A DNA stretch of 64,000 bases from Candidatus Latescibacterota bacterium (lineage in GTDB: Bacteria > Latescibacterota > UBA2968 > UBA8231): contig CBDCXV010000010.1 of assembly GCA_965223905.1 (NCBI GenBank), forward strand, positions 2,016,001 to 2,080,000, written 5' to 3'. Below, piece by piece: positions 33,014-38,427 of the stretch (its first letter is position 1; the number at the start of each line of letters is the position of its first letter). Below the pieces are notes generated by a model. The model was given only the letters and a program-made list of their open reading frames with translations. It did not search any database and was not told the origin of the DNA. A program made the translations under genes and the position numbers.

Positions 33014-36000
33014 TCATCGGGCTTCAACCCGTTTTGTCGACGTCTCGTCTGGCAGCGAAGCGATCACCTGCAGGGCGCCGCGCATCGGCGAGCATATGCT
33101 CTTACCCACGCCCCGGTGAGGCCGCATTCGGGTGCCACCGATCGCCGTCTCGACGCCAGCGAGCAGTATGCGCTTGAAGCGCTCTTCACCGGTAAACTGG
33201 TACGCCGCAGCGACCCCTTTGAGAATCCGCATATCGGCGGCACCGTCCACGATCGACTTCGGGCAGCAGGTGTAACGAAAGGAGCAGCTTTCCGGCACCC
33301 ACATGGTTTCGATGCAGTAGTCGGCTGCCCTGATGATCGCACCGGTCACTCTGGCATCTCCGGTGGCCTCGTGAAAGCGCTTGAGCCCGACCATCAGGAC
33401 GCCAACCATGAAGCCCGCGTTGCCGGTGTGCCGGGGCGGATCGCAGAAGCAGTGACCGGGGACCATAAGCCGGTCCCAGCCACCCGACGAACGCTGCCTC
33501 TCAAGCACGCGGTCGACGATAATGCGCCCCGCGTTCAGGAACACGCGCCGTCCGGTGGCGCGGTAGGCGGCGGACAGGTGAATCAGGTGCCAGCCGCACT
33601 CGCGACAGTTGGTGAAGTCGTAATCGTTTACCATGTCGCCGATCAGGGTTTCAGAGACGGCGATAGCGCTGTCGCGGATTCTGCGGTCGCCGGTCAGCAG
33701 GGAGTGGAGGAACGGGCCTTCGACCCAGGTGTGCGAAGGCATCGTAAGCCCCGAGAACATGGCCGATTCCCTGTAACCGTCGGGGTAATACCCGCCGACG
33801 TGACCGACGCAATGCAGGTACTGTGCATCCTTCGGTATCGGACCGCCATCGGCGTGGCACGTGTCGACGTCGACGAGGTGGCTCGCCGCTTCGTCTGCCC
33901 AGCGAAAGAACGACACGTCACCTCCGCGAATGAACTCCTGCAGGAAACACCACGGGGTATCGTACTCCATGTTGCCCCAGTTGTATTTTCGCTCTCCGAA
34001 CCAGTCTCCGAAGTTGAGCATGCCGTACGCGCGCGTAGTCTGCCTGTCCTCTTCGTAGGCGTCGCGGGCCGCTGCCACCCACTCCTCGTATTCCGGATAG
34101 GGAGACGGGTTCTTGGGCGGGAAACGGGTCCAGGCGTCGCTGTCGTTGAAGTGCGACAGGGGGGCGCGGTAGATGGGAGGAGAGGCCACGGCGTCGGCGA
34201 GGTCTGCAGCCTCGTCCTGTCCGTAGGAGATCCAAAACTCGGAGGTGCGAGAGATCCCCTTGCGAAGCTTGTAATGGCCGTCGAGCAGGTAGTAGTAAAG
34301 CCGGTCTTCCAGCTCACCGCCTCGCGGGTAGCGCGATGAATCCAAGGACGGAAGTACCTCGACGACGATCGAATTGGCCGCGAGAGTCAGCGCCTTGGGG
34401 TAATTCTGCCAGAAATCGCGGATGGCTACTGACACGCTCCCTCGATCACCGGTGACGGATGCAGCCCCGTTGCTCCTGCGGCCGCCAGCTACCCTCTGCG
34501 CGCGCCTGCGCGCGCCGCTCGCCTCGTACGAATCGAAGCGGTTGTCGTCGAGCTGTTCGATTCGTGCACAGGCAGCGCGCGAGTGCCTTCCCTTGCTCTG
34601 TAATACCGGCGCGTTGCCGACCTCGACGGGGATGCAGAGCGACAGCGACTGGACCCGCTCGAAGTCGAGATCGGACACGTCGTTCACGACAGTGTGCTCA
34701 ACACGAACGCGGCGGCTGCCGGAGAAGAAATGCAGCCGGAAGACCGACCGGAGGCAAACGCGACTCCCGCGACTCCGGTGAGTCACTTCCAGGCGGATGG
34801 TAGCCCTCTGCGGGCCACTGGTTTCAACCGTCAGCGAATCGGGAGCGCCGCTGCGATAGGCGCGTCCAACGGCGTCGACGGCAGTGACCGCTGTCGCATC
34901 CCCCATCGAGCGGCTCGAGCCGTCCTGCCGTACTTCGACCAGCCCGGGGATCACGGTCCGATCGCGCGGAATGCGAACCCGGAGCGGTCCCGTCACGACC
35001 TCGACATGTCTCCTCGACGAGCGCACTCGCACTTTCCCATCGGTCTCGTTGCGCACGGACTTCCCGAATTCGACCGCGCAGTCTGAAACCCCGTCGCCCT
35101 CGTAGTCGAGCAGCGCCCACTGGATCGACCCATCGTCCCAACGGCTCTGCGCCGCCACTTGGGTCGGCACCGGGCGATTCGATGAGTCGACGACGCGAAT
35201 CGAGCCGATGTTCGAGACCGCCCCTTTTTTGAAGGGCACTCCCACGGTCACCGGCCAGGCGCGCTCACAGCTCTGGGCCACTTCGAGGGCGAAGCGGCCC
35301 TTCTCAATCTCCGAGTGTTTTCTGGATGGACGCACGCGAAAGGCACCTGAATACTGAGCCTCGAGCCGCCGCGAGCGGTCCGCGAGATCGACGTCGTACA
35401 CATAGTCGCCAGCCGCCAGATTCTCGAGCACGACCTCGTGGTTCGACAACGCGGTCCGGAGGAGCACCGTCTTCTTCTTCCCCCCCTTCAGCCCCCAGCG
35501 CAAGCGGCCCGATGCCGGGCGATTCGAGCGCCACGTGACGTAGGCGATTGGCCTCTCTCCATCGATGCGGACATCCACAGAGGGAGACGCGATTTTCAGC
35601 CTGTCGGCGGCACCACGGGGCTTCCTGTCGAGCAAAACCACGTTCTCGATTCTGCACGGACCCGAAGTTGCATTCGTCACCAACCGGATCGGCTCGCCAC
35701 CCTTGAAGGCAAACTTCTCGGGCGCGAGCAACAGGTGTAACCGGTTGTCGGGGTCCGACAGCGCAGTGCGGGCCACACACCGGTGCCCGATCCAGATGTC
35801 AACGGCTTCATCGGCGCCGGCGGCAGCGTACATCGTGAACCCGAGATAGTACCTGCCCCGCCGGTGGATGACGTCGCCAAGCTCACTCACGAGACCGGCC
35901 CGGCACACCGACGGCGGCCTGATCACGGACGCATTCGCGTATTCAGTGACCGTGTCGTTCATGAAGCCGTCCAGCCGGCAGGCGAAGGCCGGGATGACCA

Positions 36001-36073
36001 CGGCGTTTTCGAGTATTTTCTCGATCCGCCCATCACCGGACAGAGACAGCGCTTTGGGGACTTCATCCTTCAC
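33014..36073 (-). CDS. Large YetA/exo-rhamnogalacturonan-lyase-like protein
   Basis: PVTVGVPF..RWDDGSIQWALLD, RDFWQNYPK, YGMLNFGDW, helical C-terminal domain. Confidence 0.6.
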   Translation of the reverse strand: MKDEVPKALSLSGDGRIEKILENAVVIPAFACRLDGFMNDTVTEYANASVIRPPSVCRAGLVSELGDVIHRRGRYYLGFTMYAAAGADEAVDIWIGHRCVARTALSDPDNRLHLLLAPEKFAFKGGEPIRLVTNATSGPCRIENVVLLDRKPRGAADRLKIASPSVDVRIDGERPIAYVTWRSNRPASGRLRWGLKGGKKKTVLLRTALSNHEVVLENLAAGDYVYDVDLADRSRRLEAQYSGAFRVRPSRKHSEIEKGRFALEVAQSCERAWPVTVGVPFKKGAVSNIGSIRVVDSSNRPVPTQVAAQSRWDDGSIQWALLDYEGDGVSDCAVEFGKSVRNETDGKVRVRSSRRHVEVVTGPLRVRIPRDRTVIPGLVEVRQDGSSRSMGDATAVTAVDAVGRAYRSGAPDSLTVETSGPQRATIRLEVTHRSRGSRVCLRSVFRLHFFSGSRRVRVEHTVVNDVSDLDFERVQSLSLCIPVEVGNAPVLQSKGRHSRAACARIEQLDDNRFDSYEASGARRRAQRVAGGRRSNGAASVTGDRGSVSVAIRDFWQNYPKALTLAANSIVVEVLPSLDSSRYPRGGELEDRLYYYLLDGHYKLRKGISRTSEFWISYGQDEAADLADAVASPPIYRAPLSHFNDSDAWTRFPPKNPSPYPEYEEWVAAARDAYEEDRQTTRAYGMLNFGDWFGERKYNWGNMEYDTPWCFLQEFIRGGDVSFFRWADEAASHLVDVDTCHADGGPIPKDAQYLHCVGHVGGYYPDGYRESAMFSGLTMPSHTWVEGPFLHSLLTGDRRIRDSAIAVSETLIGDMVNDYDFTNCRECGWHLIHLSAAYRATGRRVFLNAGRIIVDRVLERQRSSGGWDRLMVPGHCFCDPPRHTGNAGFMVGVLMVGLKRFHEATGDARVTGAIIRAADYCIETMWVPESCSFRYTCCPKSIVDGAADMRILKGVAAAYQFTGEERFKRILLAGVETAIGGTRMRPHRGVGKSICSPMRGALQVIASLPDETSTKRVEAR

Positions 36074-36357
36074 TGACGGTAGTGTCCTTGCTCATGGCAC
36101 AATGCGATCGACAAGATGCGGGCGATAACATAGGGAAACGAGCGGGCATTTCGCGACACCAATCCAGTCCCCATCACAAGCGGAGACTCGATCACCTGAC
36201 GGGTCCTGTCCTGGTTGGAAGGCGACCGTCTGATTCGCCCAGGAGTGAATCCCTTGCTGCGGCGCTGAACTCCGTGTCTCATGGGCTCCAGGTTTCCAAC
36301 TCCTGCCACGTCGAGTTTGAGAAGTTGGTCGAAGCACCACCCCGAAACGAGGTCTCG

Positions 36358-36386
36358 TTGACGAGGTCGCCGGCGACAGCTACATT
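36358..36386 (+). promoter_or_regulatory. Sigma70-like promoter of the leader/tRNA-Gln unit
   Basis: TTGACG (36358-36363), 17-bp spacer, TACATT (36381-36386); predicted +1 at or next to the A of ATG 36394. Confidence 0.75.
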
Positions 36387-36393
36387 GCATGGC

Positions 36394-36486
36394 ATGAGAA
36401 CGATGTATTCCTCGACCAGCACGCAGCCTCAGCGACAGCAACAGCGAATCCAGATTTCGCCGGGGCAGAGGGTGTTCTCTATCTGA
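36394..36486 (+). CDS. Gln-rich leader peptide MRTMYSSTSTQPQRQQQRIQISPGQRVFSI
   Basis: 30 codons with 7 Gln (6 CAG, 1 CAA), five of them in 36424-36444; lies between the promoter and the terminator. Confidence 0.75.
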   Translation: MRTMYSSTSTQPQRQQQRIQISPGQRVFSI

Positions 36487-36521
36487 TAAACAGACCGAAG
36501 ACCTGATAGTAAGGCCCCGGC
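36459..36521 (+). promoter_or_regulatory. Predicted antiterminator helix
   Basis: GCCGGGGC (36459-36466) is exactly complementary to GCCCCGGC (36514-36521), the terminator 5' arm. Confidence 0.7.
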
Positions 36522-36547
36522 AGCTGATACCTGCTGGGGCTTTTTCT
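36511..36547 (+). terminator. Intrinsic terminator (attenuator) just upstream of the tRNAs
   Basis: AAGGCCCCGGCAG-ctgatac-CTGCTGGGGC followed by TTTTTCT. Confidence 0.85.
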
Positions 36548-36557
36548 ATGTACAGTT

Positions 36558-36632
36558 TGCGGCGTCGTCTAATTGGCAGGACAGCAGGCCCTGACCCTGC
36601 AGATCGAGGTTCGAATCCTCGCGCCGCAGCCA
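36558..36632 (+). tRNA. tRNA-Gln(CUG)
   Basis: Acceptor stem TGCGGCG/CGCCGCA, G73, encoded CCA; anticodon arm GCAGG-ccCTGac-CCTGC; T arm CGAGG-TTCGAAT-CCTCG. Confidence 0.92.
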
Positions 36633-36636
36633 GTTT

Positions 36637-36711
36637 TGGAGTGTCGTCTAATCGGCAGGACGCCGGGTTTTGGACCCGGAAATCGGGGTTCGAATCCCTG
36701 CACTCCAGCCA
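36637..36711 (+). tRNA. tRNA-Gln(UUG)
   Basis: Acceptor stem TGGAGTG/CACTCCA, G73, CCA; anticodon arm CCGGG-ttTTGga-CCCGG; TTCGAAT loop. Confidence 0.95.
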
Positions 36712-36763
36712 CTCCACCTCGATGGGCGCAGGCCACAAGTAACCATGTCCTCAGCGGGCCGGC

Positions 36764-36895
36764 AACCTGCTCGATTTCGACGGCAAGGAGCTCGGCCTGG
36801 GCGTGGTCAACCCGTGCACTGAACGCGTCGAAAAGGCAAGGGATATCCGCGAGCGGGTCGAGCGTGCGCTCGAGCGCTACCCCGGAGAAAGGCTA
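36764..36895 (+). pseudogene. Fragment resembling the cobalamin-independent methionine synthase II C-terminal region
   Basis: DGKELGLGVVNPCTERVE..DIRERVERALERYPGERL; no start codon and no NPDCG motif. Confidence 0.45.
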
Positions 36896-37002
36896 CGACA
36901 ACTCACCCGCTCGACATTCTCCCCCCGGTACTTGCCTGGACCATTCCAATGCCCTTTATCTCACCAACCGTAGACACCTCAAACGCCGGGTTAGGTAAGC
37001 GA

Positions 37003-38427
37003 ATGAGCGAGATCGATCACCTGTTCGACGACGAGGGCATGAGGCGGTTTCTGGTCGACGGCTACGTCGTCGTCAAGGCCGCTATGCCGGCCGACTTCCA
37101 CGCCGGCGTTCACCGCCGTGTGGAGGAGATGTTCGAGATCCACGGCAACCTCGGCAACAACATCCTGCCACTGATCCCCGAGATTCAGCAGGTCTTCGAC
37201 CATCCCGCGGTGCACGGCGCCATGACCAGCATCCTGGGGCCGGGCTACGTCATGCACCCGCACCGCTATTGCCACCGCAACCAGCCGGGTAGCGAGGCCC
37301 AGAGCTTCCACAAGGACACCTACGAGGGAGACGAGCAGGTGAAGCACCACCGCTGTCGCTGGGCGGTGGCCTTCTACTACCCCCAGGATACCACCTTCGA
37401 CATGGGCCCCTCGGCGATTCTTCCCGGCAGCCAGTATTACGACAGCTCGGAGGCCGCCCACAAGCAGCCGGACCTGCCGTTGTGCGGCGAAGCCGGTACG
37501 GTGACGATCATCCACTTCGATCTCTGGCACCGCGCCTCGCCGAACAGCAGCGAACGGCAGCGCTACATGCTCAAGTTTCTGTTCGAGCGCCTAGGGGAGC
37601 CGACGCGGCCCTCGTGGCGCAATGCCAACCCGGATTGGGTTGCCCCCGCGGGGGATCCCGGCCAGCACCAGGGTATGTATGAGAAGTTGTGGCGGTGGAA
37701 CCGCGGCGCCTCAACGCAGAACGGCTCGCCCCGCGACGGAAATGCCATCGATGCGCTGGCGGAGGAGCTCTGCCGCGGCAAGGGGGAGCGGGAGAAACTG
37801 GATGCCGCCTATGAGCTCGGGGCCCGGGGCGCCGCCGCTCTGCCGCCGCTCGTTGAGGCGCTACAAGCCGAATCCGAGGAGGTCAGCCGCCATGCCGCTT
37901 ATGGGCTGAGCGCCGCCGGCGTGACCGCGGTACCGCAACTGATCGAAGCTCTCGGCGAGGGTGGCGACTTGGCGCGCGTCCACGCCGCCTATGCCCTGGC
38001 CGACAGCGGTCCGGCAACCTGGCAGGATCTCCTCCACGCCGACCCTTCCGCTTGCCGCGCCGCCGCCGAGGCCTTGACCGCCGCCCTCGGGGACGAATCG
38101 AGCTGGGTCAGGCGCAACGCAGCCGAGGCGCTGGGAACGATCGGCGAACCGCTGCCGGAGGCGGTGACGGCATTGGGCGACCTGCTCGGCGACGGCGAAT
38201 TCTGGATTCGCGACAATGCCGCCCGCGCCCTGGCCAAGATGGGAGCGCGTGCCGAAGGGGCTGTCGACGCCCTGGCGGCGAGATTGAACGACGACAACCG
38301 TTATGTCCGCTTCCACGCCGCGATGGCCTTGCGTCGGATCGGCACCCCGGCCGCGGAGCGGGCGCTGTTCGACAACCTGCTGACGGCGCGCTGGTGCCCG
38401 CTGACCACGGCCGAAACCCCGTACTAA
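37003..38427 (+). CDS. PhyH-family dioxygenase fused to HEAT repeats
   Basis: FHKD, YYPQDT, WHR; C-terminal VRRNAAEALG / IRDNAARALA repeats. Confidence 0.85.
   Translation: MSEIDHLFDDEGMRRFLVDGYVVVKAAMPADFHAGVHRRVEEMFEIHGNLGNNILPLIPEIQQVFDHPAVHGAMTSILGPGYVMHPHRYCHRNQPGSEAQSFHKDTYEGDEQVKHHRCRWAVAFYYPQDTTFDMGPSAILPGSQYYDSSEAAHKQPDLPLCGEAGTVTIIHFDLWHRASPNSSERQRYMLKFLFERLGEPTRPSWRNANPDWVAPAGDPGQHQGMYEKLWRWNRGASTQNGSPRDGNAIDALAEELCRGKGEREKLDAAYELGARGAAALPPLVEALQAESEEVSRHAAYGLSAAGVTAVPQLIEALGEGGDLARVHAAYALADSGPATWQDLLHADPSACRAAAEALTAALGDESSWVRRNAAEALGTIGEPLPEAVTALGDLLGDGEFWIRDNAARALAKMGARAEGAVDALAARLNDDNRYVRFHAAMALRRIGTPAAERALFDNLLTARWCPLTTAETPY

Follow-up and report, generated by a model that had tools for sequence, protein, structure and literature searches.

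Leader-peptide attenuation is a textbook mode of bacterial gene control, and the outputs described for it are biosynthetic, transport and synthetase genes. Its classical examples are the trpL, hisL, pheL, leuL, thrL and ilv leaders, with the Rfam families His_leader and Trp_leader, and the pheST attenuator of Escherichia coli, with its pheM leader, has a synthetase as its output. In the classical attenuators of amino-acid operons, as presented in the accessible parts of two articles (PMC5314783, PMC1183508), the antiterminator is selected by a stalled ribosome. Here we analyse a locus of a Candidatus Latescibacterota bacterium, located on a 64,000-nucleotide (nt) stretch of contig CBDCXV010000010.1 that is referred to as the window, the whole genome being designated G000. 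We consider it probable, from its anatomy and from comparison with relatives, that this locus is a ribosome-dependent leader-peptide transcription attenuator, which would sense the supply of glutaminyl transfer RNA, Gln-tRNA(Gln), and gate an accessory tRNA-Gln(CUG)/tRNA-Gln(UUG) operon.

The locus shares with the classical attenuators a short open reading frame (ORF) carrying a run of regulatory codons, the mutually exclusive helices 1:2, 2:3 and 3:4, and an intrinsic terminator. It differs from them in that glutamine (Gln) would be the sensed amino acid, that the output is two tRNA genes and no protein-coding gene, that the messenger RNA (mRNA) is apparently leaderless, that segment 2 lies inside the leader ORF, six codons upstream of the stop, and that it belongs to no curated Rfam family. 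The pheM-pheST system is comparable in that its output is translation apparatus for the sensed amino acid, which makes it the direct analogue of the Gln leaders ahead of glnS described below; its output is a synthetase rather than a tRNA, and the window genome has no leader at glnS. T-box riboswitches likewise sense the charging of a specific tRNA through a terminator/antiterminator switch upstream of the same amino-acid system, but they do so by direct tRNA binding, independently of translation, and their targets are synthetase, biosynthesis or transport genes, whereas in the window sensing would be performed by the translating ribosome. In mycobacteria, leaderless polycysteine short ORFs act as cysteine-responsive attenuators of protein-coding operons, according to the abstract of a preprint (bioRxiv 10.1101/834739). 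These resemble the window in their leaderless short ORF, their run of a single codon type and their amino-acid-responsive control of downstream genes; they differ in sensing cysteine, and the abstract describes no intrinsic-terminator switch before tRNA genes. The trp/his-type mechanism is known; the locus departs from it in the putatively sensed amino acid, the apparently leaderless start and, above all, the tRNA-only output. A search aimed at a possible attenuator-like region near pheW, a tRNA-Phe gene of E. coli, gave nothing relevant. The preliminary description of the locus, made from the sequence alone, knew of no attenuator whose only output is its cognate tRNAs, and none was found in our literature search either, nor was any other leader-peptide attenuator with a tRNA-gene output or any Gln-codon leader, with a coverage of subscription journals so thin that one may have been published. 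The accessible parts of five articles (PMC2659441, PMC2965389, PMC3082878, PMC4833913, PMC5314783) contain no leader-peptide attenuator with tRNA output and no Gln leader.

The promoter, the 30-residue ORF with seven Gln codons, the 8-base-pair (bp) complementarity, the U-tailed terminator and the tRNA pair are all located where the preliminary description had placed them (Table 1). The Gln codons of the leader start at 36424, 36430, 36436, 36439, 36442, 36451 and 36466 and comprise six CAG and one CAA, so that both Gln codons are represented; two of the CAG codons (36451-36453 and 36466-36468) lie beyond the regulatory cluster. In the minimum free energy (MFE) fold, helix 1:2 is enclosed by an outer helix formed by GCCTC at 36426-36430 and GGGGC at 36462-36466, and the 5' strands of both helices lie within or beside Gln codons. 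Segment 2 starts 14 nt past the last clustered Gln codon (36444) and forms the antiterminator 2:3, of eight perfect bp, with segment 3 (36514-36521) in the terminator 5' arm. The energy of this duplex, -21.2 kcal/mol, was matched by 1 of 300 and by 0 of 500 dinucleotide shuffles in two tests. The terminator T-tract is separated from the first tRNA by 10 nt. A codon-cluster ORF, an intrinsic terminator, a mutually exclusive 2:3 helix and an output tied to Gln, which are among the defining features of an attenuator, are combined in an element of about 190 nt.

Table 1. Components of the putative Gln attenuator and its tRNA genes (positions in the window).
Feature	Position	Strand	Description	Basis
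Sigma-70-type promoter	36358-36386	+	-35 TTGACG 36358-36363, N17, -10 TACATT 36381-36386	promoter scan
Leader ORF	36394-36486	+	ATG 36394, 30 codons + TGA (36484-36486), peptide MRTMYSSTSTQPQRQQQRIQISPGQRVFSI	
Regulatory Gln cluster	36424-36444	+	CAG CCT CAG CGA CAG CAA CAG, 5 Gln in 7 codons	
Helix 1:2 (anti-antiterminator)	36444-36460	+	GCGAA 36444-36448 / TTCGC 36456-36460	MFE fold
Segment 2 (antiterminator strand)	36459-36466	+	GCCGGGGC	perfect complement of GCCCCGGC (segment 3)
Intrinsic terminator	36511-36547	+	13-bp stem 36511-36523 / 36531-36543, loop CTGATAC, U-tract TTTTTCT 36541-36547	
tRNA-Gln(CUG)	36558-36632	+	encoded CCA, U1-A72, G73, anticodon loop CCCUGAC (C33)	57 bits against Rfam tRNA
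tRNA-Gln(UUG)	36637-36711	+	encoded CCA, U1-A72, G73	62.9 bits against Rfam tRNA

The scan of 35800-37200 returned a single promoter-like site, that of the leader (36358-36386; shuffle mean 0.3). A separate tRNA promoter 3' of the leader, which the preliminary description had named as evidence that would speak against its proposal, was not predicted between the leader and the tRNA pair of the window. The -10 hexamer ends 7 nt upstream of the ATG, a distance that implies a predicted leader mRNA that is leaderless or nearly so, and the transcript is probably leaderless. The ORF lists carry the leader frame merely as the 3' part of longer ORFs started by GTG or TTG, for instance 36082-36486.

The mechanism that we propose is deduced from this anatomy and from the comparisons presented below. 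Transcription would begin at or beside the ATG of the 30-codon leader ORF. When charged tRNA-Gln is scarce, the leading ribosome would stall on the Gln cluster and cover segment 1, leaving segment 2 free to pair with the terminator 5' arm; with the terminator blocked, RNA polymerase would read into both tRNA genes, which would later be processed out of the transcript. When CAG and CAA are decoded fast, the ribosome would pass segment 2 and reach the stop codon, and segment 2 would be either covered or re-paired with segment 1, so that the 13-bp terminator would form and transcription would end 10 nt short of the tRNAs. This OFF route would depend on a ribosome sitting over segment 2 as segment 3 emerges, or on fast local re-pairing of helix 1:2 behind the ribosome. 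Constitutive tRNA-Gln genes elsewhere would supply a baseline. Since the output tRNAs are the very molecules read by the sensor, such a circuit would place the capacity to decode Gln codons under direct negative feedback.

The proposal is corroborated by homologous leaders ahead of tRNA-Gln genes in relatives. In a blastn search of 61 related genomes the leader part was matched in one only, G016, which belongs to another genus of the same family (77% identity over window positions 36424-36711). There, TTGACA-N17-GATATT is followed after 7 nt by the ATG of an ORF with nine Gln (MRNSRLQRQQQQQQRIQSSLGQRPSMY), a segment of this ORF is identical to the terminator 3' arm, and a T8 tract precedes tRNA-Gln CTG and TTG genes. 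In G001, of the same genus as the window genome, the module was found by the covariance model R1: it consists of TTGACG-N16-TACATT, 8 nt, the ATG of the ORF MRTREAHSGQRQQRQRVVSPPGWVCPRSLC, and a single tRNA-Gln(TTG), with CCGCCGGG complementary to the terminator arm and a T-tract that abuts the first base of the tRNA (T9 including that base). A metagenome contig, L148, presents TTGACA-N17-TATGCT, 7 nt and the ATG of the ORF MEATWHTFALQQQQQQQRATGPLGREVLCL ahead of a tRNA-Gln CTG almost identical to that of the window. The gap from T-tract to tRNA is 0 nt in G001, 10 nt in the window and 14 nt in L148. Despite indels and a DNA identity of about 77%, the ATG, the reading frame and the Gln run are retained in G016, G001 and L148. 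In a comparison of the window with G016, both promoter hexamers, the start codon, the Gln run together with segment 2, and both arms of the terminator are conserved, and the N-terminal codons and the spacer from the stop codon to the terminator are variable; across G000, G016, G001 and L148, both N- and C-terminal residues of the leader peptide vary. Homologous loci lacking the Gln-rich ORF or the complementarity would have spoken against the preliminary description, and all four of these keep both.

Segment 2 starts 10-17 nt past the last clustered Gln codon in seven of the eight tRNA-type loci, which is about the reach of a ribosome with that codon in its A site; in the exception, metagenome locus L129, the best duplex begins at the stop codon, 22 nt beyond the last Gln codon. 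The distance from the -10 hexamer to the ATG is 6-8 nt in G000, G016, G001, L148, L154 and probably L091 (the last two loci are described below). This recurring short distance points to leaderless mRNAs, on which the first ribosome would be closely coupled to the polymerase.

G000 and G016 have different flanking genes, and the only neighbour shared by G001 is a weak PhyH-family one. In the window, the upstream neighbour (33014-36073, PcRGLX-like) lies on the opposite strand, and the downstream genes (PhyH and HEAT, PIG-L, UxuA-like) have functions unrelated to translation, so that the block of promoter, leader, terminator and tRNAs can be regarded as a self-standing unit.

The helices of the model were evaluated on an alignment of four sequences (A4: G000, G016, G001 and G026, the last with a leader ahead of glnS), which was model-fitted to helices 1:2 and 3:4 and built without use of 2:3. 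Taking helices 1:2 and 3:4 together, 94.2% of the 86 cells are paired, and eight pairs have changed on both sides; none of 500 column shuffles scored as high, and slid controls reached 30-52%. Helix 1:2 displays the compensatory series AA:UU, GG:CC and CA:UG, and the terminator helix 3:4 is paired in 98.1% of cells, with six pairs changed on both sides. The antiterminator 2:3 falls into a single register in all four sequences, with 92.1% of 38 cells paired and two compensatory pairs, a level reached by 9 of 500 shuffles; slid controls gave 28-51%. Covariation in both alternative structures, for which the preliminary description had suggested looking, is thus present among these four sequences. 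In G000, G016, G001 and L148, none of 500 dinucleotide shuffles equals the duplex that the terminator 5' arm forms with the leader upstream of it. The MFE fold of the full leader includes the terminator in seven of the eight tRNA-type loci, the window among them, the exception being L154, where segment 2 pairs with the terminator arm. For the ON state, transcripts ending short of segment 4 were folded with 28 nt masked, as by a ribosome, at the last clustered Gln codon; under these conditions G000, G016, G001 and L148 all form helix 2:3.

A second class of Gln leaders was found ahead of glnS in sister genera. Of 76 genomes of the family, 72 yielded a glnS gene, and upstream regions were inspected for the best 30 loci by score, all of them from genera g14 and g16. 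Nine of the 30 have a Gln leader with a terminator 5' of glnS (G026, G015, G073, G065, G063, G017, G062, G061 and G027), eight flagged by script and one, G065, with an interrupted T-tract, seen by reading. Such loci are matched by R1 and by the four-sequence covariance model R2. The leader of G026 (MNALYQQQRQQQRIYDNARRRFLHW) and that of the window have the identical stretch CAGCGACAGCAACAGCG in common, and the peptide motif QQQRQQQRI of G026 parallels QRQQQRI of the window; on account of this shared stretch and motif, the tRNA-type and glnS-type leaders look homologous. The two classes have the same four-segment architecture. In the glnS type, the gene lies 34-110 nt past the terminator and encodes a protein, some loci have a 5' untranslated region (UTR), and segment 2 frequently lies directly against the stop codon, a position that it also has in the trp model, whereas that of the window lies further upstream. 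The fraction of 300 shuffles reaching the observed duplex energy was 0 in G026 and G073, 0.02 in G015, 0.04 in G065, 0.057 in G063, 0.08 in G027 and 0.27 in G062. No Gln leader was found at glnS of G000, G001, G002 or G016: in the first three, glnS starts about 25 nt after the preceding gene, and the 5' region of G016 glnS has neither a Gln ORF nor a terminator. Within one family, judged on these sequences, a predicted Gln attenuator precedes either the synthetase gene or accessory tRNA-Gln genes. No publication on a Gln leader 5' of glnS in g14 or g16 was found; for Shewanella, a table of one article (Table 3 in PMC2659441) lists a predicted terminator/attenuator in the glnS 5'UTR. The conservation, the covariation and this parallel at glnS, a gene of the type that attenuators classically control, all support the trp/his-type reading that the preliminary description had put forward.

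In another genus of the family, a threonine (Thr)-rich leader ORF (MRMRRSVSETATTWTTTTPPTGTPTGPTVGVGPATVDHSS) and a terminator were observed 5' of a ThrRS gene (L047, G013:C120, about 1501-1688; gene from 1702), with a TTGACA-type promoter upstream and an ORF that begins ATGAGAA as the Gln leaders do. A Thr leader is absent at thrS of G000.

The tRNA complement of the genome is consistent with an accessory role of the window pair. ARAGORN predicted 57 tRNAs in the 7.92-Mb assembly, four of them tRNA-Gln: the window pair and one UUG and one CUG copy on contig C1, the latter in a Ser-Ser-Gln cluster. The window and C1 copies differ at many positions and all have U1-A72 and G73. The separate housekeeping tRNA-Gln genes that the preliminary description proposed to look for are thus present on C1, and they identify the window pair as an accessory set. 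Many other tRNA genes of G000 have a TTGACA-type promoter 10-40 nt upstream, which indicates that the organism uses the promoter type of the window. At least four cognate residues in 10 codons were found in the upstream frames of 7 of the 57 tRNA rows, and a count of six was reached by two Gln rows only; among the 57 predictions, no cognate-rich leader lies upstream of a non-Gln tRNA. Clusters of at least five Gln in seven codons number 61 genome-wide (7.92 Mb, six frames), which gives an expectation of 0.0023 in the three 200-nt same-strand windows 5' of tRNA-Gln units. Glutamine starvation, limited GatCAB transamidation and tRNA cleavage are the candidate triggers that the preliminary description put forward; the genome encodes both GlnRS and GatB, the latter on contig C11. 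Next to glnS on contig C9, a stretch of 16 kb (533900-549700) contains two near-identical copies of the GluRS gene gltX plus a fragment, interspersed with a transposase-looking ORF, an arrangement that may reflect duplication or an effect of assembly.

A further observation concerns the tRNAs themselves. C33 replaces the near-universal U33 in the leader-controlled tRNA-Gln(CUG) of the window, of L002 (1635-1708) and of L148 (2007-2081), the anticodon loops being CCCUGAC in G000, UCCUGAC in G016 and CCCUGGA in L148. The tRNA-Gln(UUG) of G016 also has C33 (CCUUGGA), and the housekeeping CUG copy on C1 has U33.

Wider scans delimited the occurrence of the module. In the phylum, the pattern "CAGCAR, 75-115 nt, T5, 0-20 nt, tRNA-like start" was found in 3 of 168 genomes (G000, G001 and G016), and the reversed control pattern gave 2 hits. 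R1 matched 10 of 76 genomes at E<=0.1, four of them real: L033 and L039 were rejected on reading as terminators only, the matches L040-L043 extend over nothing but its terminator portion (model positions from about 100 to 154), L044 is the weakest (18.8 bits, E=0.099), and L036-L038 were scanned for tRNAs only. R2 matched 26 of 132 genomes of the class at E<=0.01, with 11 new matches outside the family, of which 10 were rejected as terminators or coding sequence. The remaining one, L070 (G042:C2, 1501-1642, minus strand), from another family of the class, is doubtful as a Gln leader. It has a TTG-started ORF with FQQQQVQ followed by a terminator resembling those of the glnS type (ACCCGCTG...CAGCGGGTTTTTT), and the N-terminus of the next gene looks by eye like a class-I synthetase.

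A scan of genome contigs for a T-run before this type of tRNA-Gln gave 34 loci, one of them with a Gln short ORF: L091, from a metagenome-assembled genome (MAG) labelled uncultured Syntrophaceae, in which the ORF MMTKTMNVLQHFQQQRNGHITPGGAVLP and a strong terminator precede tRNA-Gln(CTG). Its antiterminator has 6 bp (6 of 500 shuffles as high), and 5 of 201 genomes of the order match the pattern, with a Gln run, judged on the matched strings, in G168 only; given its short antiterminator and its absence from relatives, L091 is retained as a possible instance. The same scan revealed six contigs of Bacteroidota MAGs (L092, L093, L095, L102, L105, L109) with a conserved strong terminator 15-20 nt 5' of tRNA-Gln(UUG). 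All but L092 have a conserved 18-residue short ORF (MKHSISMPTVSFFQTNYV) about 135 nt upstream, which contains one Gln and hence is no Gln leader.

The metagenome scan gave 37 loci, in seven of which ARAGORN placed a tRNA at the tRNA-like part of the pattern, six being tRNA-Gln (L131 and L136 are identical) and one, L151, a tRNA to which no type was assigned. Four of the five distinct tRNA-Gln loci (L124, L129, L148 and L154) have an in-frame, ATG-started ORF with a Gln run and a hairpin terminator; L131/L136 has no such leader ORF and hairpin. In L124 (locus GC content 0.36) the leader MNKIINIAVQQQQQQSSREDSPGIA precedes five tRNA-Gln genes within a 19-tRNA array; in L129 the leader MFHHTNLTRNFQQQQSQQMEVFTRV precedes tRNA-Gln TTG and CTG and has a 33-nt 5'UTR with AGGA; in L154 the leader MVIFNQQQQTRPSQLADC precedes tRNA-Gln CTG and TTG. 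As the leaders of L124, L129 and L154 share nothing with the window except the design, the design itself recurs. The L124 contig (1-6916) carries 19 same-strand tRNA genes in 6.9 kb (Leu, Val, Arg, Phe and five Gln) and a class-I synthetase-like fragment with a KMSKS motif, with a cognate leader ahead of the Gln block only. Two pattern scans of viral contigs gave 0 and 1 hits, the single hit being coding sequence without a tRNA.

Several observations weigh against the attenuator model and must be accommodated. No Shine-Dalgarno sequence lies upstream of the leader ATG, so that translation would have to rest on leaderless initiation. The module is rare, with only the three genomes mentioned above among 168 of the phylum, and in G002, of the same genus, it is absent by both blastn and pattern scan. 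The covariation counts come from four related sequences in an alignment fitted to two of the three helices. Helix 1:2 of the window is short, with 5 bp and a 5-bp outer helix. In transcripts ended before segment 4 and folded to equilibrium without the mask, helix 2:3 still forms in G000, G016 and L148, and G001 alone of the four retains 1:2, as the model predicts. In the folding check suggested in the preliminary description, the masked fold yields the ON state, and the unmasked equilibrium fold does not by itself yield the OFF state in the window. As 2:3 forms without a ribosome, the OFF state would have to rest on ribosome coverage of segment 2 or on kinetics, and a ribosome with a standard footprint at the stop codon (36484) would leave segment 2 uncovered. 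Physiologically, extra tRNA would not relieve a pure glutamine shortage, which makes the rationale less obvious than for glnS. Sixteen sequencing runs were listed, one of them of RNA (0.11 share of words), and contigs of four runs were aligned; those of the RNA run cover 36781-36900 (exact match) and the 3' part of a tRNA, and the leader falls outside them. The other pieces of the RNA run are tRNA-like fragments of other organisms. In one metagenome DNA contig of run X8, a "joint" from 36466 to 36557 skips 36467-36556; this is probably the terminator 3' arm of a relative aligned to the look-alike segment 2, and not a real deletion form.

Three other explanations of the locus were weighed, none of which accounts for it as well. 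A translation-dependent attenuator could read an input other than Gln-tRNA, such as ribosome availability, translation stress or the arrest of a nascent poly-Gln/Arg peptide. Any slowing of the ribosome over segment 1 would have the same structural effect, and the Arg codons of the QRQQQR(I) motif, which recurs in the tRNA-type and several glnS-type leaders, could signify a constraint on peptide or RNA. However, the CGN codons also form the segment-1 strand (CAGCG), which offers a structural explanation for the Arg codons, the dissimilar leaders of L124, L129 and L154 have only the Gln run in common and no Arg pattern, and every output is Gln-specific, tRNA-Gln or glnS; we consider this explanation improbable. 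Slightly more improbable still is that the leader is an independent small gene, encoding a small protein or a small RNA (sRNA), in which Gln richness would be incidental or serve the peptide, the tRNAs being expressed by constitutive leak-through or from an unrecognised promoter overlapping the terminator. Whatever the model, a terminated leader RNA of about 150 nt is expected; visual inspection also suggests a weak -35/-10-like pair (CTGATA-N17-TATGTA, 36524-36552), and Rfam gives a sub-threshold match to the sRNA NsiR1 (31.2 bits, gathering score 39). Yet the promoter suggested by eye does not pass the criteria of the scan and lacks a counterpart in G016 and G001, whose T8-T9 tracts run right up to the tRNA, the NsiR1 match amounts in essence to the terminator hairpin, and the peptide beyond the Gln run is unconserved among G000, G016, G001 and L148. 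This explanation would also leave the presence of the same leader type 5' of glnS in nine genomes unexplained, and the antiterminator complementarity is kept with compensation.

That a Gln-rich frame, a hairpin and tRNA genes co-occur by chance or as a relic, with no regulatory role, is extremely unlikely. The patchy distribution (3 of 168 phylum genomes) and the absence of the Syntrophaceae locus from 200 other genomes sampled from its order would suit it, but the expected occurrence calculated above is minute, the module has been kept in two genera, with compensatory changes, and it recurs in unrelated contigs. The attenuator that senses Gln-tRNA(Gln) therefore remains our preferred explanation. 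Two further candidates were rejected. The first is a real protein from the 134-residue ORF at 36082-36486, whose frame is that of the leader: this ORF gave no Pfam hit, and the similarity to G016 begins only at the promoter. As regards known RNA families, Rfam gave only sub-threshold matches to NsiR1 and His_leader. The NsiR1 match (RF02399, window 36484-36548, E=6e-4) rests on the terminator hairpin and CCUGAUA, and the resemblance to this cyanobacterial nitrogen-stress sRNA is probably fortuitous; His_leader reached 20 bits against a gathering score of 49 (E=1.5), with no other Rfam leader family at E<=10. No covariance-model match to a T-box or glutamine riboswitch was obtained at E<=10 in 35900-37100.

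At the evolutionary level, an attenuator of glnS appears, from the sequences compared, to have switched its target to the accessory tRNA-Gln genes in the lineage of the window, an apparent retargeting of one sensor between synthetase and tRNA. The C33 of the CUG tRNA is a hint that this isodecoder is functionally distinct and conditionally expressed, perhaps as a reserve in case tRNA-Gln is lost to damage or nucleases. The tRNA-type and glnS-type leaders are the first candidate Gln-specific leader peptides. The putative wiring is seen in two genera of the family of the window and in at least three unrelated metagenomic lineages, and we give even chances to the more general proposition that tRNA genes can be the direct output of attenuators reading their own codons, a self-contained homeostat of decoding capacity that has arisen or spread repeatedly. 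An attenuator with its cognate tRNA as sole product is the shortest possible feedback loop, the tRNA being both signal and product, and the compact element could act as a sensor of Gln decoding capacity. A search rule of the form codon-X-rich short ORF, terminator, tRNA-X could reveal conditionally expressed isodecoders in other lineages. If the proposal is true, bacterial tRNA supply would be tunable gene by gene through translation, beyond growth-rate control.

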